From NCBI GenBank assembly GCA_000091205.1, contig AP006484.2: a stretch of DNA of 64,000 nt; one strand, given 5' to 3'. The stretch comes from Cyanidioschyzon merolae. Lineage: Eukaryota. The notes under the pieces were generated by a model. It ran no database searches, was not told the DNA's origin, and worked only from the letters and a program-made list of their open reading frames with translations. Position 1 is the first letter of the stretch, and every line of letters starts with the position of its first letter. Shown here piece after piece: positions 11,701 to 54,320 of this stretch. The translations under genes and the position numbers were made by a program.

Positions 11701-12688
11701 CACCGATACATGAAAGCTACCATCAACAAGCTTCGCATGCTCACAACGGAGCAGGAGGTAATGGAGAGACCGGCGCACTGAATACCAGAGATAAACATGA
11801 CATAAAGGAAGCAGCAGCTACAGAGAAAGCCCACAGAGGCTGGTACCGACGATCATCGAAAGCACCCCATTTTTCGAAAATACACTCCAGTTTGTGGCCC
11901 TGTACCATCTCACTCCAGCATGAGCGTTCGACGATGACGCCTACAACACCTGGAATACCCGGATGTGCGGGTATCCTGCCAACCGCAGTCGCGCATGAAA
12001 AACTTGTTCATGGGATAGGGATCTGTGTCTGGTACCAGACTCGACTGAGGCGTGGAGACTCATTTTGATACTTGACGAGTATCGCAAAATGGAATTTGGA
12101 GGCCTTGGTCTCTGAACCGAGCGTACTCGCGTCGACAAAAACCCAAAAGTCTTTTTTTGGAGCGGGAAGGCCGTTTCAACGCAGCACGCTCAACCCGTAC
12201 TGTCTGGCGTCACGTTCGGTCGTGCCAGGCTTCCAGCACGGAACACACAAGCCGCCAAAACTTCTGTTGCGTTCTGTTTTCTGATTATCTGTTCGTGTTT
12301 ATCGCTAGCGGTGCAAGCAGGGTTTTCTCACTGGTTGTGTTTACGTTTTGAGGCTGCTTTTACCTCGCCCTGTACCAAGGAAAGAGTCTTTTCTAGTGGT
12401 GCGGCGCGCTTCCGCCTCACGAGTGCTACGCTGGTCTCGGGGACAACGAAAGCGCAGGCTCCGGTACCTCTGTAAATTGCTCACAAGCCGGTACCGTGCT
12501 CCATCAACGGAGGCTCTAGGCACCGAGTAGTTCCGGGAGTGCCCGAGAAGGCGCCCGGTCTTGCGTGAGCTCTGCTGATCGAAAGGCAACGCTCTCGACT
12601 CCCTTTGGCAGGTTGACAGCGGTATCAAACCAGAGCAATCGGTATTCAGAGGCTCTGTCCAAGTTCTAAGCTTCGCCCTGCAAACAAG

Positions 12689-14017
12689 ATGGCAGAGCGC
12701 AGCGTGCAAGAAGCGCTCGAAGACATCTTCGGTTCCGACGAAGAAAACGAGCAAGTTACCGCACCGTCGGGGACTGTCGATGAGCAGACCACCACCTTGG
12801 ATGTTGCAGCGAGCAGGGGTCTGCATGATCACCTTAGCAAGCAGCCTAGCGATACGCACGAGCCGAGCGTACCCCAGGTTGACGCTTCTGGGGATACTGC
12901 ATCCCGTACCGATGACTTCATCGACGTCTCTGCTGCCGATCCGGAGCTGCTCCGTGAGGACCCCGATGACGTGATTCGAACCGAGGGTGGATGGTCATCC
13001 CGCTCTGCAAGTGAGGACGAGGATCAGTTGAGCGATGAGGGTGCTCGCCATCCATTGACCGCATTCGATCGCACCATGCGGCAGATCCAGTCTCGTAGGC
13101 AAAGAAAGCAAATCACCAACCGGGAAAGTGAAAGGGATGCAGAACGAATCCTGGAAAAGATGCGCTCTGCTTACGATGCGGATCTCATTATGGCGAGGTT
13201 GGGCCGCCCAGCGCTCGCAAAACTTCGCCTTTTGCCGGAAGTGGATACTGAGCTGCGGCGGAAAGAGATCCGAACAACACTCATCCGCCGCGGGCTCTTT
13301 GAGGTGCTTCGACGCTGGTTGGATCCGTTGCCAAACGGGGCGCTACCCTCGATTGACGTCCGCTCAACATTGATGGATATTCTGCTTACGTTTCAGACGA
13401 GAGTGAGCGATTCAGAGGATGAACTCGAGGAAGAAGAGACCGCAACCGAGTTGCAACGCTCTTCGGCACGACGTGCAGGAACCAGAGCGTGGGAGCGCGC
13501 GCTCCTGAACTCCGGCCTTGGGCGTTGTATTCACTACTACAAGCTATATGATCCAGACCCCGCTTGTCAGCTCAAAGCAGAGCGTCTGGTGATGCGCTGG
13601 GCAGCTGCAGTGCTGCACTCCGATACAAACTATCGCAACGCCTTGCATAAGCGTTACGAAATGGTGCCGGCTCGGAGCGGCTCGCAAGCGCAACGTCGAG
13701 AAACACCGAACAGAACCTCTGGTGCAACTGACTTGCCGGCAAAGCACGAAACTGCGAGCAACGCTCCAGGTTTACCGGCCACCGCGACGCCGGATCATTT
13801 CACAAACCCGATGAAGTCAAGCGCACCTGCGGTGTTAGCCGCGGCGCTTCCCGAACGTCCATCAGGCGACTGGAAGCGGATCCCACAGGTTGGAGAGTTA
13901 CCTGCTGTTCCCCGGATGCGCTCCGTTCGAGAGAAACAAATGAGCAAACACTTGAAACGGATTCGCGATACGGTTCAGATGAGCGGATTCGAGCGCGGGG
14001 TCTCGACAACGAGGTAG
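12689..14017 (+). CDS. IWS1: IWS1/Spn1-family transcription elongation factor (442 aa)
   Basis: Acidic N-terminus followed by an IWS1-C/TFIIS-N-like block: LLPEVDTELRRKEIRTTLIRRGLFEVLRRWLDPLPNGALPSIDVRSTLMDILLTF. Single ORF. Confidence 0.7.
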   Translation: MAERSVQEALEDIFGSDEENEQVTAPSGTVDEQTTTLDVAASRGLHDHLSKQPSDTHEPSVPQVDASGDTASRTDDFIDVSAADPELLREDPDDVIRTEGGWSSRSASEDEDQLSDEGARHPLTAFDRTMRQIQSRRQRKQITNRESERDAERILEKMRSAYDADLIMARLGRPALAKLRLLPEVDTELRRKEIRTTLIRRGLFEVLRRWLDPLPNGALPSIDVRSTLMDILLTFQTRVSDSEDELEEEETATELQRSSARRAGTRAWERALLNSGLGRCIHYYKLYDPDPACQLKAERLVMRWAAAVLHSDTNYRNALHKRYEMVPARSGSQAQRRETPNRTSGATDLPAKHETASNAPGLPATATPDHFTNPMKSSAPAVLAAALPERPSGDWKRIPQVGELPAVPRMRSVREKQMSKHLKRIRDTVQMSGFERGVSTTR

Positions 14018-36680: not shown

Positions 36681-37571
36681 CTAGAGTGCAAAACGCTCAA
36701 AGGCTAACACCGAAATCCCCGGACCGATAGCTTCGCGCACTGTTCGCTGTCGACTGCGAGAGCGTTCGTCGGCAGAGTCGGTAACAAGCACTTGGTCCAG
36801 GAGACAGCGCTCAGCGATGAACGCTTCGAACTTGACACTTCTGCGCTGGGGAGGCGAAGCGTTCGCGGCACCCAATTGCCGAGGAGCGCGGAACGCTTCA
36901 TCTTCCGCAGGCATCAGGCTTTCGTAGACGGACGGCTCGATATCGGCCGCGGAAACGTACTGCGGATTCATTGCAGCGATATGCATTGCAACCTGTCGGC
37001 CGAGTGGCGACGGTGCCGAGCAAGCAACCAAAACACCAACGCGTGCGTGATTATGCAAATAGGAATATATTCGACCGTCCCGAAACGTGTCCGGTACTTG
37101 CAAACGGATGCCCCGGTGGACTGTGAGATTCTCGTCAGTCTTTGCGACCGCTTCTCGTAGCTCGTCGCGCAATGCCTCAAGCAGCTCCTGTACATTGGTT
37201 ACCGCTCCGCGCAGGAGCAGCTCTAGTCCGCGCTGACTAACACGTTGGACGACAGGCAACTGGTGCACAAAGTCCGTCTCGGAACGGATCTCTACCATGG
37301 CACCGCACCGTTGATCAGGTGCGACCTCCAGTGCAATGAGCCCACTCCTCGTGCTGCGCTGCGCTTTCTTTCGCATCACGGTCTCTGCGTAGCTTGACAA
37401 AAGCCCCAGTGCTGCGTCCAGCTTGCCGTCACACCGTTCTAATGCCTTTTTACACTCCATAACCGGGGCACCCGTCAGGTCACGAAGCTGACGGATGGAG
37501 GCTGCATTCCAGTTCGGGCTGGAGCTTAACCAGCGCCTGCCAATGTGCAGGAGAAACTGCGACCTAACCAT
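36681..37571 (-). CDS. TSFM: elongation factor Ts, mitochondrial (TSFM), 296 aa
   Basis: N-terminal presequence MVRSQFLLHIGRRWLSSS, then the EF-Ts N-terminal UBA-like motif ASIRQLRDLTGAPVMECKKALERCDGKLDAALGLL (compare IKELREKTGAGMMDCKKAL). Dimerisation-domain-like remainder. Confidence 0.8.
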   Translation of the reverse strand: MVRSQFLLHIGRRWLSSSPNWNAASIRQLRDLTGAPVMECKKALERCDGKLDAALGLLSSYAETVMRKKAQRSTRSGLIALEVAPDQRCGAMVEIRSETDFVHQLPVVQRVSQRGLELLLRGAVTNVQELLEALRDELREAVAKTDENLTVHRGIRLQVPDTFRDGRIYSYLHNHARVGVLVACSAPSPLGRQVAMHIAAMNPQYVSAADIEPSVYESLMPAEDEAFRAPRQLGAANASPPQRRSVKFEAFIAERCLLDQVLVTDSADERSRSRQRTVREAIGPGISVLAFERFAL

Positions 37572-45585: not shown

Positions 45586-46653
45586 ATGACGCGCCTTTAT
45601 GGCGGAAAACTGGGACTTGAGCTTTGTTTCCAGAGCTACCTCGGCAGTGGCTTTGCCTTGCCTAGCACTTTCGAAAAGAGGCCAGTGCAGTGCTGTGGTC
45701 AACCTGGAAAGACGACTCGGAAGCTGCTCCAGTCTCGTGTACGACGAACTAGGACGACTCAGGCTCGCCGCGGACCACACGGACAGTGGCCCGACAATCG
45801 ACTAGCAGAGTTTGCGACCAAGTCAGGTAAGCAGCGCCCCATCTTTGTTCCAGTCGCTTCAGCTGTGCCGCCAGCACCGGAATACGCCGTCCCGGGCACG
45901 GTCTATCTCGTGGGGGCCGGCCCCGGCGCCTACGAGCTGCTCACGCTACGGGCGTGCAGCCTGCTACGCACAGCCGACGTGGTTCTATACGATGATCTCG
46001 CCCAGGGCTTGATAAGCGAAGAACTTTGGAATCGCTTGAATCGTAACAATCCGCCATCGCTAACGCTTTGTGTCGGCAAGCAAAGGTACAAGCAGCGCGA
46101 AATCAATGAGTTGATGGTGCATCAAGCCAAGAACCTGAACCGAAGTGTGCTACGCCTGAAGTGCGGTGATCCCAGTCTCTTTGGCCGTTTGCACGAGGAA
46201 GTCGCCGCATTACGCGAGTCCCAGATCCCTTACGTGGTGGTTCCCGGTGTGTCGTCGTGTACGGCGGCACCGATCGCAGCGGGGATTTTTCTCACGGAAC
46301 GGCAACACGGACGCAGTGTGTTGTTGCTCAGCGGCCATGACGCTTCAGAGATTCCATATGAAGCAGCCGCTTGCGCTGCGGACACGCTTGTGCTCCTCAT
46401 GGTCGGCAGGAATTTAAGTGCTGTGGCTGCAAGGCTCCTCGACCAGCTGTCGCCCAATGTGCCCGTGGCGCTCTGTAGCACAGTCGATGGCCTTCAGTGG
46501 AGAGGCACGCTTCAGGCGGCGGCCACTGGCGAGGCTACACAATTTCTTGTAGATGCAAAAACAGGAGAACTAAGGACAACAGTCGCAGTCATCGGAGCAG
46601 TTGTTCAGGACATCACTAGTCCCGGCCAAATCGCGGGCGTGTTTCAGACATGA
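45586..46653 (+). CDS. uroporphyrinogen-III C-methyltransferase (sirohaem/cobalamin branch; CobA / Met1 / UPM1-like) with ~100-aa N-terminal extension
   Basis: VYLVGAGPGAYELLTLRACSLLRTADVVLYDDL, GKQRYKQREINELMV, VLRLKCGDPSLFGRLHEEV, IPYVVVPGVSSCTAAPIAAGIFLT. These are the classic SUMT / tetrapyrrole methylase motifs. Confidence 0.8.
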   Translation: MTRLYGGKLGLELCFQSYLGSGFALPSTFEKRPVQCCGQPGKTTRKLLQSRVRRTRTTQARRGPHGQWPDNRLAEFATKSGKQRPIFVPVASAVPPAPEYAVPGTVYLVGAGPGAYELLTLRACSLLRTADVVLYDDLAQGLISEELWNRLNRNNPPSLTLCVGKQRYKQREINELMVHQAKNLNRSVLRLKCGDPSLFGRLHEEVAALRESQIPYVVVPGVSSCTAAPIAAGIFLTERQHGRSVLLLSGHDASEIPYEAAACAADTLVLLMVGRNLSAVAARLLDQLSPNVPVALCSTVDGLQWRGTLQAAATGEATQFLVDAKTGELRTTVAVIGAVVQDITSPGQIAGVFQT

Positions 46654-52700: not shown

Positions 52701-54320
52701 ATGCTGCAATCAATGAGTTTGGAAGCAAGGGTTCTTGAGACGCGGAAGAAGGGCGCGTCCAAACACGAGGTGTCCGTAGCTCGCGGGCGAAGCAACGCTG
52801 CTGCCGAAGCGACGCTGCAAACTGCACAGCATCCGTCACAACATGCCGTCCTGGCATACCAGTGCTTCGTGGCCCCGATGTCACCGCTGCGTCTGCAAAG
52901 AAACTCGGAGAATAGGACGCGGCGACTTTGCTCTGTAAGAACGAAGCGACGCTTCGGAAACACAGCGCAAAAGACACAGCGCCTCGAGATTCGTTCGACG
53001 GTGCCCAAGTCAGAGCAACCTGCTGTTCAATACAAAATAGTGGACGCTCTCATCGAGTCCAAAGTCGCAGAGCTTTATCCGCACTTTGCACAAGTTGATC
53101 GCCGAACCGCCTACCATCTAGGACGGATACTGCAGACATTCCGTGCACATCGCCTTGGTACACACCATTTTGCGAGCATCAACGGATACGGACACGGCGA
53201 CATAGGTCGAGACACTCTGGATGCCATCTATGCGGACCTCTTCGGTACAGAGGCGGCACTGGTGCGCGCACAGTTCTTCTCCGGGACGCATGCAATAGCC
53301 TCGTGTCTGTTCGGGGTCCTGCGCCCCGGAGATGAGATGCTTTCGATAAGCGGGAAACCCTACGATACCCTCGAAGAGGTCGTTGGCCTGCGACCCAGTG
53401 CCAATGGGGCTGGAGGCTCCCTTCGCGATTTCGGAATCGAATACCGAGAGCTGGAGCTCAGTGCATCCCACGGGAACATCCTCGATTGGGATGCGCTCGC
53501 CCAAGGAACCTGCTTCTCACCGAAAACCCGCCTGTGCTTGATCCAACGCTCCCGCGGATACGCCTGGCGACCGTCGATTTCCGTCAAGGATATCGTTCGT
53601 GCTGCTCGAATCATCAAGAGCCACCGGCCAGACATGATTGTTTTCGTCGATAATTGCTATGGCGAGTTTGTTGAGGAGTTCGAACCTACGAATCTTAGCG
53701 ACGACATTGACCTTATGGCAGGATCGCTGATCAAGAACCCTGGCGGGACCCTTGCGCTCGGCGGCGGTTACGTAGTGGGGCGTGCAGCGCTGGTCGCTGC
53801 CGCAGCTAACCGCCTCGCAGCACCGGGCGTCCACGGGGGCGCCACCTACAACCTTAATCGAGTCAACTATCAGGGCTTATTTTTGGCGCCTCAGATGGTA
53901 GGAGAGGCGCTCAAAGGGGCAATGTTAGTCGCTACTACGCTTCTTGAGCTCGGGTTTGAGGTATCGCCCATGCCGCCTCAATTCGGAGGAGAAGCAGCCC
54001 ATCGCACAGATATCATTCAGGCCGTTCGACTCGGCGCGCCCGAGCTGATTGTTGCCTTTGCTCGAGCGGTGCAGAAATGGTCCGCTGTAAGTGCATATGT
54101 CCAGCCTACAGCCGGTGCGACACCAGGTTATGAAGATCAGGTGATTTTCGCCGACGGCACCTTTATGGAAGGAAGTACGTTGGAGCTTAGCGCAGATGGG
54201 CCACTTCGTGAACCCTATGTTGTGTACGCACAAGGTGGCACGCACTGGACGCATTGGATTCATGTCTTGCGTGAGTTCGGCGCAGTACTAGATCAACAGC
54301 GCCACGTAAAACTAGGGTAA
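52701..54320 (+). CDS. PLP-dependent enzyme of the YnbB / 'aluminium resistance protein' family (Met_gamma_lyase-like, bacterial type) with ~100-aa N-terminal extension
   Basis: GYGHGDIGRDTLDAIYADLFGTEAALVRAQFFSGTHAIASCLFGVLRPGDEMLSISGKPYDTLEEVVG, VFVDNCYGEFVEEFEPT, MAGSLIKNPGG, GFEVSPM, ATPGYEDQVIFADGTFMEGSTLELSADGPLREPYVVYAQGG. These are colinear with Bacillus YnbB motifs as I remember them: GYGYGDSGRDTLE..YADVFGGEAALVRPQ..SGTHAIS..PGDEL..GKPYDTLEEIVG; VFVDNCYGEFVE; AGSLIKNPGG; LELSADGP. Confidence 0.8.
   Translation: MLQSMSLEARVLETRKKGASKHEVSVARGRSNAAAEATLQTAQHPSQHAVLAYQCFVAPMSPLRLQRNSENRTRRLCSVRTKRRFGNTAQKTQRLEIRSTVPKSEQPAVQYKIVDALIESKVAELYPHFAQVDRRTAYHLGRILQTFRAHRLGTHHFASINGYGHGDIGRDTLDAIYADLFGTEAALVRAQFFSGTHAIASCLFGVLRPGDEMLSISGKPYDTLEEVVGLRPSANGAGGSLRDFGIEYRELELSASHGNILDWDALAQGTCFSPKTRLCLIQRSRGYAWRPSISVKDIVRAARIIKSHRPDMIVFVDNCYGEFVEEFEPTNLSDDIDLMAGSLIKNPGGTLALGGGYVVGRAALVAAAANRLAAPGVHGGATYNLNRVNYQGLFLAPQMVGEALKGAMLVATTLLELGFEVSPMPPQFGGEAAHRTDIIQAVRLGAPELIVAFARAVQKWSAVSAYVQPTAGATPGYEDQVIFADGTFMEGSTLELSADGPLREPYVVYAQGGTHWTHWIHVLREFGAVLDQQRHVKLG

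Follow-up and report, generated by a model that had tools for sequence, protein, structure and literature searches.

How a bacterial-type PLP enzyme came to be encoded among ordinary eukaryotic genes of the alga Cyanidioschyzon merolae, and which process it serves there, are the questions raised by a single open reading frame (ORF) in a 64,000-nucleotide stretch of its genome, hereafter termed the window. Enzymes of this type have been kept from cyanobacteria via red algae to flowering plants without having an assigned function in phototrophs, and the sole genetics for the family, obtained in Bacillus subtilis, connects its member YnbB to the modification of EF-P. For the C. merolae gene, membership in the YnbB family, origin from the cyanobacterial endosymbiont and targeting of the product to an organelle are, taken jointly, very probable.

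The ORF lies exactly at the position given in a preliminary description of the window (Table 1), and its product is identical to XP_005535162.1/BAM78876.1 of C. merolae 10D according to an exact-sequence cluster look-up. The gene is not new: it is already annotated in the finished genome of this model alga, as 'aluminum resistance protein' on a chromosome-sized record (457,013 bp) of strain 10D. All seven motifs quoted in the preliminary description were found in the claimed order, starting at residues 162 (GYGHGD), 169 (GRDTL), 194 (SGTHAI), 218 (GKPYDTLEE), 314 (VFVDNCYGEFVE), 340 (AGSLIKNPGG) and 494 (LELSADGP). The assignment derived from them, a bacterial-type PLP enzyme of the YnbB family, was borne out by a full-length match to the Pfam family PF06838 (Met_gamma_lyase), in which residues 117-520 correspond to profile positions 4-394 of 405 with E = 6.7e-154 and a score of 512.8 bits, the cut-off being 24.2. 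Moreover, five PDB structures designated 'aluminum resistance / YnbB ortholog' were retrieved with sequence matches of 9e-113 to 8e-100; such agreement is far beyond chance. The AF2 model of the core shows pLDDT values mostly above 90, and Foldseek superimposed this core on 3fd0, 3ht4, 3jzl, 3gwp and 3hvy with a target-normalised TM of 0.91-0.94, an rmsd of 1.8-2.6 Å and 39-45% identity.

Table 1. Features of the YnbB-family gene, in positions of the window
Feature	Position	Strand	Extent, properties and basis
YnbB-family ORF	52701..54320	+	539 codons plus stop; ORF list, Pfam, exact-sequence cluster look-up
N-terminal segment, translated or 5' leader	52701..52877	+	codons 1-59; no counterpart in the Cyanidiococcus orthologue
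Arg-rich basic presequence, candidate transit peptide	52878..53039	+	codons 60-113; 18.5% R, 18.5% S+T, net charge +11
Catalytic core, fold-type I PLP-dependent, YnbB/PF06838	53040..54317	+	codons 114-539; Pfam, AF2, Foldseek
D317 codon, motif V-D-N-C-Y-G-E, predicted PLP pyridine-nitrogen-binding aspartate	53649..53651	+	invariant in alignment A1
K345 codon, motif S-L-I-K-N, predicted PLP Schiff-base lysine	53733..53735	+	invariant in alignment A1

B. subtilis YnbB (BSU17440) and the Firmicute structures 3HT4, 3FD0, 3JZL, 3HVY and 3GWP/3I16 likewise belong to PF06838, are colinear with the C. merolae protein along the entire core and have the invariant motifs in common with it, including the SLIKN lysine. 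By contrast, the C. merolae protein is nuclear-encoded, carries an extra N-terminal presequence of 54-113 aa and falls into a cyanobacterial/plastid clade, whereas Firmicute YnbB is placed in Bacillota clades; in addition, the gene context with HflX or an M42-peptidase that is seen in Bacillota is absent at the C. merolae locus. An alignment of 45 eukaryotic, cyanobacterial and other sequences (A1) contains 51 invariant columns, two of which correspond to the putative active-site residues. By homology, we infer K345 to be the Schiff-base lysine, while D317, judged by how fold-type I PLP enzymes are generally organised, would bind the pyridine nitrogen of PLP.

K345 falls between residues 291 and 359, where the protein gives a weak match to PF01053, the profile of the Cys/Met PLP family. 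The database names of the YnbB family, 'cystathionine beta-lyase family protein involved in aluminum resistance' and 'methionine gamma-lyase family', would make the protein, with the same origin, a small-molecule C-S lyase in the metabolism of sulfur amino acids, akin to cystathionine beta-lyase or to methionine gamma-lyase, or else a factor of literal aluminium tolerance, as would befit an alga from acid hot springs. The nearest other folds retrieved by Foldseek (CGL, MGL and CGS), the weak matches to PF01053 and to the NCBIfam MGL models and the acidic, metal-rich habitat of C. merolae (PMC9812998) are in line with such a function. However, the scores against the true MGL/CGS models are far under cut-off (29.7 vs 666 for NF005695, 16.8 vs 549.7 for TIGR01328, and 15.2 bits vs 27 for PF01053), and because they fall under the curated family thresholds, the protein is placed on sequence grounds outside the Cys/Met-metabolism family PF01053 and the methionine gamma-lyase equivalogs. 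With the enzymes of PF01053 (methionine gamma-lyase, cystathionine gamma-synthase, beta-lyase and gamma-lyase) it shares fold type I PLP dependence and an analogous S-x-x-K lysine motif, but the characterised lyases are just 16-22% identical to it and superimpose with a TM of about 0.6. Furthermore, the names trace, in the literature found, to structural-genomics deposits and transitive annotation and not to assays, and a reconstituted biochemical activity of any YnbB-family member was not found in that literature. Because the family occurs universally in land plants and in cyanobacteria that are not acidophilic, it does not represent an adaptation to acid or aluminium, and literal aluminium resistance was rejected. 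Since the sole available genetics also favours EF-P (PMC5885033), a lyase or aluminium function is regarded as unlikely.

Concerning the origin of the gene, the preliminary description had offered two readings, an organelle-targeted protein of endosymbiotic descent or a horizontally acquired bacterial gene, of which the first is upheld by the tree topology together with the basic, disordered presequence and the second is not. In NJ trees (200 bootstraps, simple distance correction, cyanobacteria sampled as top matches only), eukaryotes and cyanobacteria were united with 100% support, with Bacillota outside; the outgroup consisted of the homologues from a GTDB genome scan, which, with a single protein query and a pattern-based prefilter, yielded Bacillota-type sequences only and, owing to that prefilter, missed the cyanobacterial ones. 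Within the united clade, support amounted to 100% for cyanobacteria, 100% for the green lineage, 98% for the red plus secondary-plastid lineages and 100% for Cyanidiophyceae, while monophyly of all eukaryotes received 51-68%. The C. merolae protein is 56-59% identical to cyanobacterial and 41-51% identical to Bacillota homologues, and its closest prokaryotic relatives are cyanobacterial proteins named 'methionine gamma-lyase family / aluminum resistance family', among them those of Picosynechococcus PCC 7003 and Nostoc sp. MS1.

Orthologues were found in red algae (Cyanidiococcus, Cyanidium, Porphyridium, Purpureofilum, Compsopogon), in the green lineage from bryophytes through angiosperms as well as in the streptophyte algae Mesotaenium and Closterium, and in the haptophyte Prymnesium, the brown alga Ectocarpus and the cryptophyte Hanusia. 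Wide presence across related eukaryotes had been named in the preliminary description as a sign of vertical descent; this is the distribution observed, and the gene is therefore considered a vertically inherited, known orthologue. The plant and algal proteins filed as 'uncharacterized protein YnbB-like' (Marchantia, Physcomitrium, Selaginella, tomato) belong to the same orthologous group and are likewise N-terminally extended, nuclear and of cyanobacterial descent; the group also includes 'protein YnbB' of Porphyridium and the 'aluminium resistance family protein' of Ectocarpus, and none of these orthologues differs in kind from the C. merolae gene. In members of the haptophyte type, though not in red algae, the C-terminus is prolonged by a tail that ends in RRYAGRR(S/T)LKN.

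The split between green and red/secondary lineages in the sequence trees is typical of endosymbiotic gene transfer. The gene was very probably transferred from the cyanobacterial endosymbiont into the nuclear genome of the host when primary plastids arose or close to that time, and was afterwards inherited vertically and, in addition, spread with red-derived secondary plastids. As a genome feature it is minor, one more unremarkable case of such a transfer.

The N-terminal extension had been described as comprising about 100 residues rich in Ser, Arg and Thr. Its existence was confirmed, with 113 residues preceding the conserved core, but the compositional bias is moderate (S+T 16.8% and R 12.4% vs 10.1% and 6.3% in the core), and the Arg richness is concentrated in residues 60-113. 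The whole extension carries a net charge of +14 and is disordered, with AF2 pLDDT values below 50 through residue 102 except at the start. Extensions are present in the inspected eukaryotic homologues, which measure 433-527 aa if a Heracleum model of 776 aa, lengthened by an internal duplication that is an artefact, is left out, whereas the cyanobacterial homologues (401-432 aa) are devoid of a presequence.

Whether translation starts at M60 rather than at M1 is evenly balanced. Met1 of the Cyanidiococcus orthologue aligns with M60 of the C. merolae protein, and with a start at M60 the preceding codons may constitute a 5' leader. The segment encoded by codons 1-59 has four acidic residues, a short helix predicted at residues 2-16 (AF2 pLDDT 68, then below 50) and, as its last four residues (56-59), the motif FVAP; when the extension was shuffled, the pattern F[VIL][AGS]P arose in 0.4% of cases. 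M5 is replaced by Ile in environmental strains and is therefore not the start codon, while the eight variable positions in 99%-identical environmental variants are evenly spread and do not discriminate between M1 and M60. For designers of localisation constructs, this ambiguity is a practical annotation concern.

The basic, unstructured presequence would most likely guide import into the plastid, where it would subsequently be removed, and plastid localisation of the protein is judged likely. Arg richness in a presequence would suit mitochondria as well, and the N-terminal Phe of red-algal and glaucophyte-type plastid targeting (PMC2222254) was not found near M1 or M60 of the C. merolae protein. 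Two in-frame initiators are moreover available, and a case is known in C. merolae in which the choice of initiator alters localisation (PMC4928187). Nevertheless, mitochondrial import, or dual targeting via starts at M1 and M60, in place of the plastid alone is rather unlikely, given that all named eukaryotes with the family belong to photosynthetic, plastid-bearing lineages, that the gene is of cyanobacterial descent and that the red-algal N-terminal Phe is present in the presequences of sister species (homologues of Cyanidiococcus, Purpureofilum and Compsopogon). A localisation or proteomic record of the C. merolae protein was not found, and the supplement of a 2026 C. merolae proteomics paper has no entry for it.

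With respect to function, the substrate of the family had been called unknown in the preliminary description, a statement that is in part outdated: in B. subtilis, the 5-aminopentanolylation of EF-P Lys32 depends genetically on ynbB, a role in EF-P modification that has been shown for B. subtilis only (PMC5885033). According to a proposal by Witzky et al., YnbB takes an intermediate of fatty-acid synthesis from ACP (PMC5885033), and the complete aminopentanol gene set, with YnbB, GsaB and YmfI, was found by these authors solely in Firmicutes. Published surveys list more than half of bacteria without a known EF-P modifier and do not discuss cyanobacteria. All 120 cyanobacterial EF-Ps retrieved here feature the Lys-tip loop (beta3-beta4) HVKPGKG(S/A)AFVRTKL. 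In the nine cyanobacterial genomes examined, the YnbB gene adjoins neither efp nor hflX. A link between cyanobacterial or plastid EF-P and YnbB was not found in the literature searched, nor was anything relevant on cyanobacterial or plastid EF-P modification, on C. merolae EF-P or on the function of plant 'YnbB-like' proteins.

By analogy, the C. merolae enzyme would share the chemistry of B. subtilis YnbB, a PLP-dependent step upstream of YmfI without which the 5-aminopentanol group on EF-P Lys32 is not built. Its target in the alga would be the cyanobacterial-type EF-P of the plastid, which, once modified, would tune how plastid ribosomes translate proline-rich stretches. That the enzyme acts in such a 5-aminopentanol modification of plastid EF-P is proposed tentatively, as a possibility that falls well short of being probable; the remaining probability falls to a different PLP-dependent reaction, of C-S lyase or transfer type, whose substrate would be a small molecule or bound to an acyl carrier. 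In a wider sense, and with a similarly low probability, the cyanobacterial/plastid YnbB clade may form part of an undescribed modification system for the EF-P tip lysine, which would attach a 5-aminopentanol-like or related acyl-derived group. If true, the plastid translation of algae and plants would rely on a modification of EF-P handed down from cyanobacteria. Because gene targeting is efficient in C. merolae and its gene set is tiny, this alga is convenient for testing plastid EF-P modification.

In eight of nine cyanobacterial genomes, the YnbB gene and the gene for a desC-like desaturase of 271-283 aa (PF00487) stand head-to-head while the remaining neighbours vary; no such pair exists in C. 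merolae. If EF-P modification did apply to the clade, the pairing might mean a common acyl/ACP-derived substrate or common regulation. Together with the suggestion that YnbB draws on ACP, it can also be read as an indication that the cyanobacterial/plastid clade serves lipid or acyl-ACP metabolism, for instance with a delta-9 desaturase, and not EF-P. This is improbable: C. merolae retains the gene yet has no plastid desaturation pathway, all of its desaturases being located in the ER (PMC4928187), on account of which a desaturase-coupled function was downgraded. Furthermore, a divergent gene pair can survive through a common promoter region without a common function, and no desaturase is found near the YnbB gene at Bacillota loci.

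The setting of the gene in the window agrees with that of a resident gene. Its neighbours are eukaryotic, as previously described, and comprise genes for an Arf GTPase, a CCT/TCP-1 chaperonin, DNA polymerase delta subunit B, a JmjC/JHD protein, EBP and an Mrt4/P0-like protein. Codon usage and GC, the comparison of which had been advised, as well as the GC1/2/3 profile match those of the neighbours; for codon usage, the correlation with the pool of window genes amounts to r = 0.88, the third-closest among 20 window genes. In addition, nine genes keep their order in an independent assembly of Cyanidiococcus. The gene is indeed a single ORF without introns, as noted in the preliminary description, but this is no sign of bacterial origin because the genome of C. 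merolae is almost intron-free; all genes of the window read as single ORFs. Scans of the window for tRNAs and Rfam families gave no matches, and neither did Pfam searches with the ORFs of the ORF-poor stretch at 55.5-61.1 kb and the upstream 184-aa ORF.

A recent horizontal transfer of a bacterial gene, for example a Firmicute or cyanobacterial one, into the Cyanidioschyzon lineage would be in accordance with the abundance of the family in bacteria (428 clusters at 50% identity with E <= 1e-30), with the lack of introns and with the reputation of Cyanidiophyceae, in which many extremophile genes have been proposed as horizontally acquired (PMC9812998). It is nonetheless close to refuted and thus highly improbable, since each of the three sampled cyanidiophyte genera possesses an orthologue, as do other red algae, plants and secondary-plastid algae, since the eukaryotic sequences form one group that is sister to cyanobacteria and split internally into green and red, and since codon usage is host-like, synteny with Cyanidiococcus is kept and intron absence is the norm of the genome. 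Bacterial contamination or a chimeric contig, in which bacterial DNA would be misjoined to algal sequence, has nothing but the bacterial affinity of the family in its favour and is negligible in view of the matching base composition, the annotation on the 10D chromosome-sized record, the nine-gene order repeated in Cyanidiococcus, the 99%-identical environmental variants on many metagenome contigs of up to 39 kb and an N-terminal extension seen in no bacterium. A protein bearing the name 'aluminum resistance protein' is also reported to be duplicated in Galdieria subtelomeres (PMC9812998).

The product of the C. merolae YnbB gene matches the Pfam profile PF06838 (Met_gamma_lyase) over residues 117-520, nearly the full profile, with E = 6.7e-154 and a score of 512.8 bits (threshold 24.2), and five structural-genomics structures designated 'aluminum resistance / YnbB-ortholog' match it at 9e-113 to 8e-100. 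These matches confirm the family assignment of the preliminary description, whose seven motifs were all recovered in the order stated there, at residues 162, 169, 194, 218, 314, 340 and 494. By exact-sequence look-up, the protein is 100% identical to XP_005535162.1 / BAM78876.1 / UniRef100_M1UNC2, the first of which is titled 'aluminum resistance protein [Cyanidioschyzon merolae strain 10D]' (record of 457,013 bp); the gene is therefore already annotated in the finished genome of this model red alga, known and ordinary. Variants with 99% identity occur on many metagenome contigs. The C. merolae genome is almost devoid of introns, consistent with every gene in the window being a single ORF. Hence, the intron-less structure, although correctly noted before, is uninformative with respect to the origin of the gene.

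Coordinates of the YnbB gene, its N-terminal elements and other features of the window
Feature	Position	Strand	Remarks
YnbB ORF	52701-54320	+	539 codons, uninterrupted
CTG, codon 51	52851-52853		upstream of FVAP and M60
FVAP	52866-52877		residues 56-59, perfect motif
ATG of M60	52878-52880		directly after FVAP
EF-Ts gene	36681-37571	-	N-terminal extension
Tetrapyrrole (uroporphyrin-type) methylase gene	45586-46653	+	domain from residue 105
Low-GC segment	55455-61132		~5.7 kb, GC 0.48-0.56 (1-kb bins)

The core of an AlphaFold2 model based on a 45-sequence alignment mostly exceeds a pLDDT of 90 and resembles 3FD0, 3HT4, 3JZL, 3GWP and 3HVY with target-normalised TM-scores of 0.91-0.94, an rmsd of 1.8-2.6 Å and 39-45% identity, whereas the next-best folds, cystathionine gamma-lyase/synthase and methionine gamma-lyase, show 16-22% identity and a TM-score of about 0.6. 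The 51 columns that do not vary among eukaryotic, cyanobacterial and other members include K345 (SLIKN) and D317 (VDNCYGE), positions at which a fold-type I PLP enzyme would be expected to carry its Schiff-base lysine and its pyridine-binding aspartate, respectively. Against models of true methionine gamma-lyase and Cys/Met-PLP enzymes, YnbB scores far under threshold, which refutes membership of the methionine gamma-lyases or cystathionine beta-lyases; both names denote resemblance only.

The closest relatives are found in Cyanidiococcus (77% identity) and Cyanidium (72%), followed by Porphyridium, Purpureofilum, Compsopogon, the haptophyte Prymnesium and plants, then by cyanobacteria (56-59%), while homologues of Bacillota share 41-51%. 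Representative homologue clusters also include the brown alga Ectocarpus and the cryptophyte Hanusia. A lycophyte-protein query retrieved the family from the streptophyte algae Mesotaenium and Closterium as well as from Marchantia, Sphagnum, Physcomitrium, Selaginella, ferns, Cryptomeria and dozens of angiosperms, many of these proteins being named 'uncharacterized protein YnbB-like' by NCBI. Such wide presence in related eukaryotes, which the preliminary description had regarded as an indication of vertical descent, identifies the gene as a vertically inherited, known orthologue.

Two neighbour-joining trees (58 and 68 taxa, 407 trimmed columns, 200 bootstraps), a simple distance method applied to the top cyanobacterial matches only and to no glaucophyte or chlorophyte, united eukaryotes and cyanobacteria with 100% support and placed Bacillota outside this clade. 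Bootstrap values likewise reached 100% for cyanobacteria, for the green lineage and for Cyanidiophyceae, and 97-98% for red algae together with lineages carrying red-derived plastids, while all eukaryotes together obtained 51-68%. Such a topology is the classic hallmark of a gene transferred from the endosymbiont when primary plastids arose, inherited vertically afterwards and spread with secondary red plastids. Phylogeny thus favours the endosymbiotic reading proposed earlier.

Several homologues display peculiarities of their own. The gene models of Diphasiastrum (P0026, omitted from the second tree for this reason) and Heracleum (P0005) contain an internally duplicated block of the YnbB core, e.g. 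FFSGTHAIACALF…YREVP twice, apparently an error of assembly or annotation, or else a local tandem duplication. Porphyridium purpureum harbours two near-identical copies (P0012 and P0028, contigs of 975 kb and 303 kb) differing mainly N-terminally, pointing either to allelic contigs or to a gene that duplicated recently. The YnbB of a 3,956-bp contig labelled as a Comamonadaceae (betaproteobacterial) MAG (PCUV01000041.1) groups with a Bacillota MAG sequence adjoining the cyanobacteria-eukaryote clade; this contig may be mis-binned. Haptophyte-type homologues (P0015 of Prymnesium, P0006-P0011, P0013, P0014, P0016, P0019, P0033, P0054, P0056 and P0075) feature an acidic C-terminal extension with the conserved end R(R/K)YAGRR(S/T/G)LKN, which red algae, plants and cyanobacteria lack.

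Horizontal acquisition and contamination, the other readings considered before, proved wrong, since neighbours, GC content, codon usage and synteny effectively exclude contamination, chimerism and recent acquisition. As originally described, the gene resides amid ordinary eukaryotic genes, identified by Pfam as those for an Arf GTPase, a CCT/TCP-1 chaperonin, DNA polymerase delta subunit B, a JmjC/JHD protein, an EBP-family protein and an Mrt4/P0-like protein, besides an ABC1 kinase, EF-Ts, an FGGY kinase, a tetrapyrrole methylase, a GDSL lipase and a NUDIX protein. GC is uniform along the window, and GC1/GC2/GC3 of the gene (0.65/0.46/0.57) are typical of its neighbours. Its codon usage correlates with the pooled window genes at r = 0.88 (third closest of 20, leave-one-out), as compared with r = 0.36-0.72 for cyanobacterial homologues. 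Moreover, the independent assembly of Cyanidiococcus shares nine genes in identical order and orientation: PolD-B, FGGY, a 557-aa ORF, TP_methylase, EBP, YnbB, a 203-aa ORF, a 323-aa ORF and NUDIX. Nor is the gene unusual locally, because EF-Ts and the tetrapyrrole methylase are likewise of bacterial ancestry and probably organelle-targeted. The low-GC segment contains no ORF above ~157 aa and no Pfam match, and in the collinear locus of Cyanidiococcus only ~290 bp (12643-12932) separate the two genes that border it; it may have been inserted in this lineage, or may be a degraded element or a non-coding locus.

Sequence conservation sets in with the core at about residue 114, and the Ser/Arg/Thr-rich extension, formerly put at about 100 residues, comprises 113 (12.4% Arg, 16.8% Ser+Thr, net charge +14), with 6.2% acidic residues versus 10.6% in the core and a pLDDT below 50 for residues 17-102. 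The eukaryotic homologues inspected are likewise extended N-terminally, in contrast to the cyanobacterial ones. The most targeting-peptide-like part of the C. merolae extension is residues 60-113 (18.5% Arg, net +11). The annotated start M1 is uncertain, because the Cyanidiococcus start aligns with the in-frame M60 (MSPLRLQR… vs MFLQADFR…), leaving codons 1-59 without counterpart there, because M5 is Ile in environmental strains, and because initiator choice changes localisation results in C. merolae (PMC4928187). An N-terminal Phe is usual in red-algal and glaucophyte transit peptides (PMC2222254) and occurs in Cyanidiococcus (MF…), Purpureofilum (GFVAL) and Compsopogon (GFLPA), whereas none adjoins M1 or M60 in C. 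merolae. In the protein as annotated, FVAP, a transit-peptide motif of the red-algal type, is remote from the N-terminus; shuffling the extension yields a match to F[VIL][AGS]P in only 0.4% of cases. From cyanobacterial origin, distribution and presequence character we infer plastid import as the likely fate, so that the organelle-targeted part of the earlier reading is probable, its endosymbiotic part being borne out by tree and distribution. Mitochondrial or dual targeting instead is unlikely.

The earlier statement that the substrate of the family is unknown is partly outdated, given the role of YnbB in EF-P modification in B. subtilis: without ynbB, the EF-P lysine is only acetylated, and YnbB, a predicted C-S lyase, was proposed to start the modification by taking an intermediate of fatty-acid synthesis off acyl carrier protein (PMC5885033). 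Subsequent surveys and reviews have adopted this role for YnbB (PMC6522883, PMC11388002, PMC11381351, PMC13602936, PMC12856214). The full modification gene set was detected by Witzky et al. in Firmicutes only, more than 50% of bacteria lack a known EF-P modifier (Volkwein et al.), and the EF-P literature consulted mentions neither cyanobacteria nor plastids. A database search retrieved 120 cyanobacterial EF-Ps (88-92% identical to the query), all 120 with HVKPGKG(S/A)AFVRTKL, a loop of the lysine-tip type as opposed to the unmodified PGKGP type; hence, the lineage ancestral to plastids possesses the lysine to be modified. By analogy, a plastid YnbB with Bacillus-like PLP chemistry might act on plastid EF-P, the most specific mechanism put forward here but a tentative and rather doubtful proposal which, if true, would make a pan-phototroph YnbB the modifier of cyanobacterial and plastid EF-P. 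The main alternative, a C-S lyase role on small molecules, is improbable.

In cyanobacteria, the pairing of the gene with a desaturase is suggestive of a connection with acyl metabolism. In eight of nine cyanobacterial genomes (Picosynechococcus, Nostoc, Moorena, Nodosilinea, a Thermosynechococcaceae MAG, Coleofasciculus, Argonema and the genome of locus L029; loci L023, L024/L025, L026 and L028-L032), YnbB lies head-to-head with a desC-like PF00487 fatty-acid desaturase, 77-410 bp apart, Leptolyngbya (L027) being the exception; no other neighbour is conserved across the nine. The desaturase measures 271-283 aa in seven genomes and is a 146-aa fragment in L029. In Nostoc, it is the first of a desC/desA/desB-like trio. 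A strictly desaturase-coupled role is nevertheless unlikely in C. merolae, which retains YnbB without a plastid desaturation pathway (PMC4928187). The context in Bacillota is unlike that in cyanobacteria: in 10 of 17 loci (L004-L020), YnbB of Clostridia-type genomes is preceded by two or three tandem ORFs which by eye resemble M42-type aminopeptidases, and in three by HflX-like GTPases; MiaA-like and LexA-like ORFs occur beside it in two loci each.
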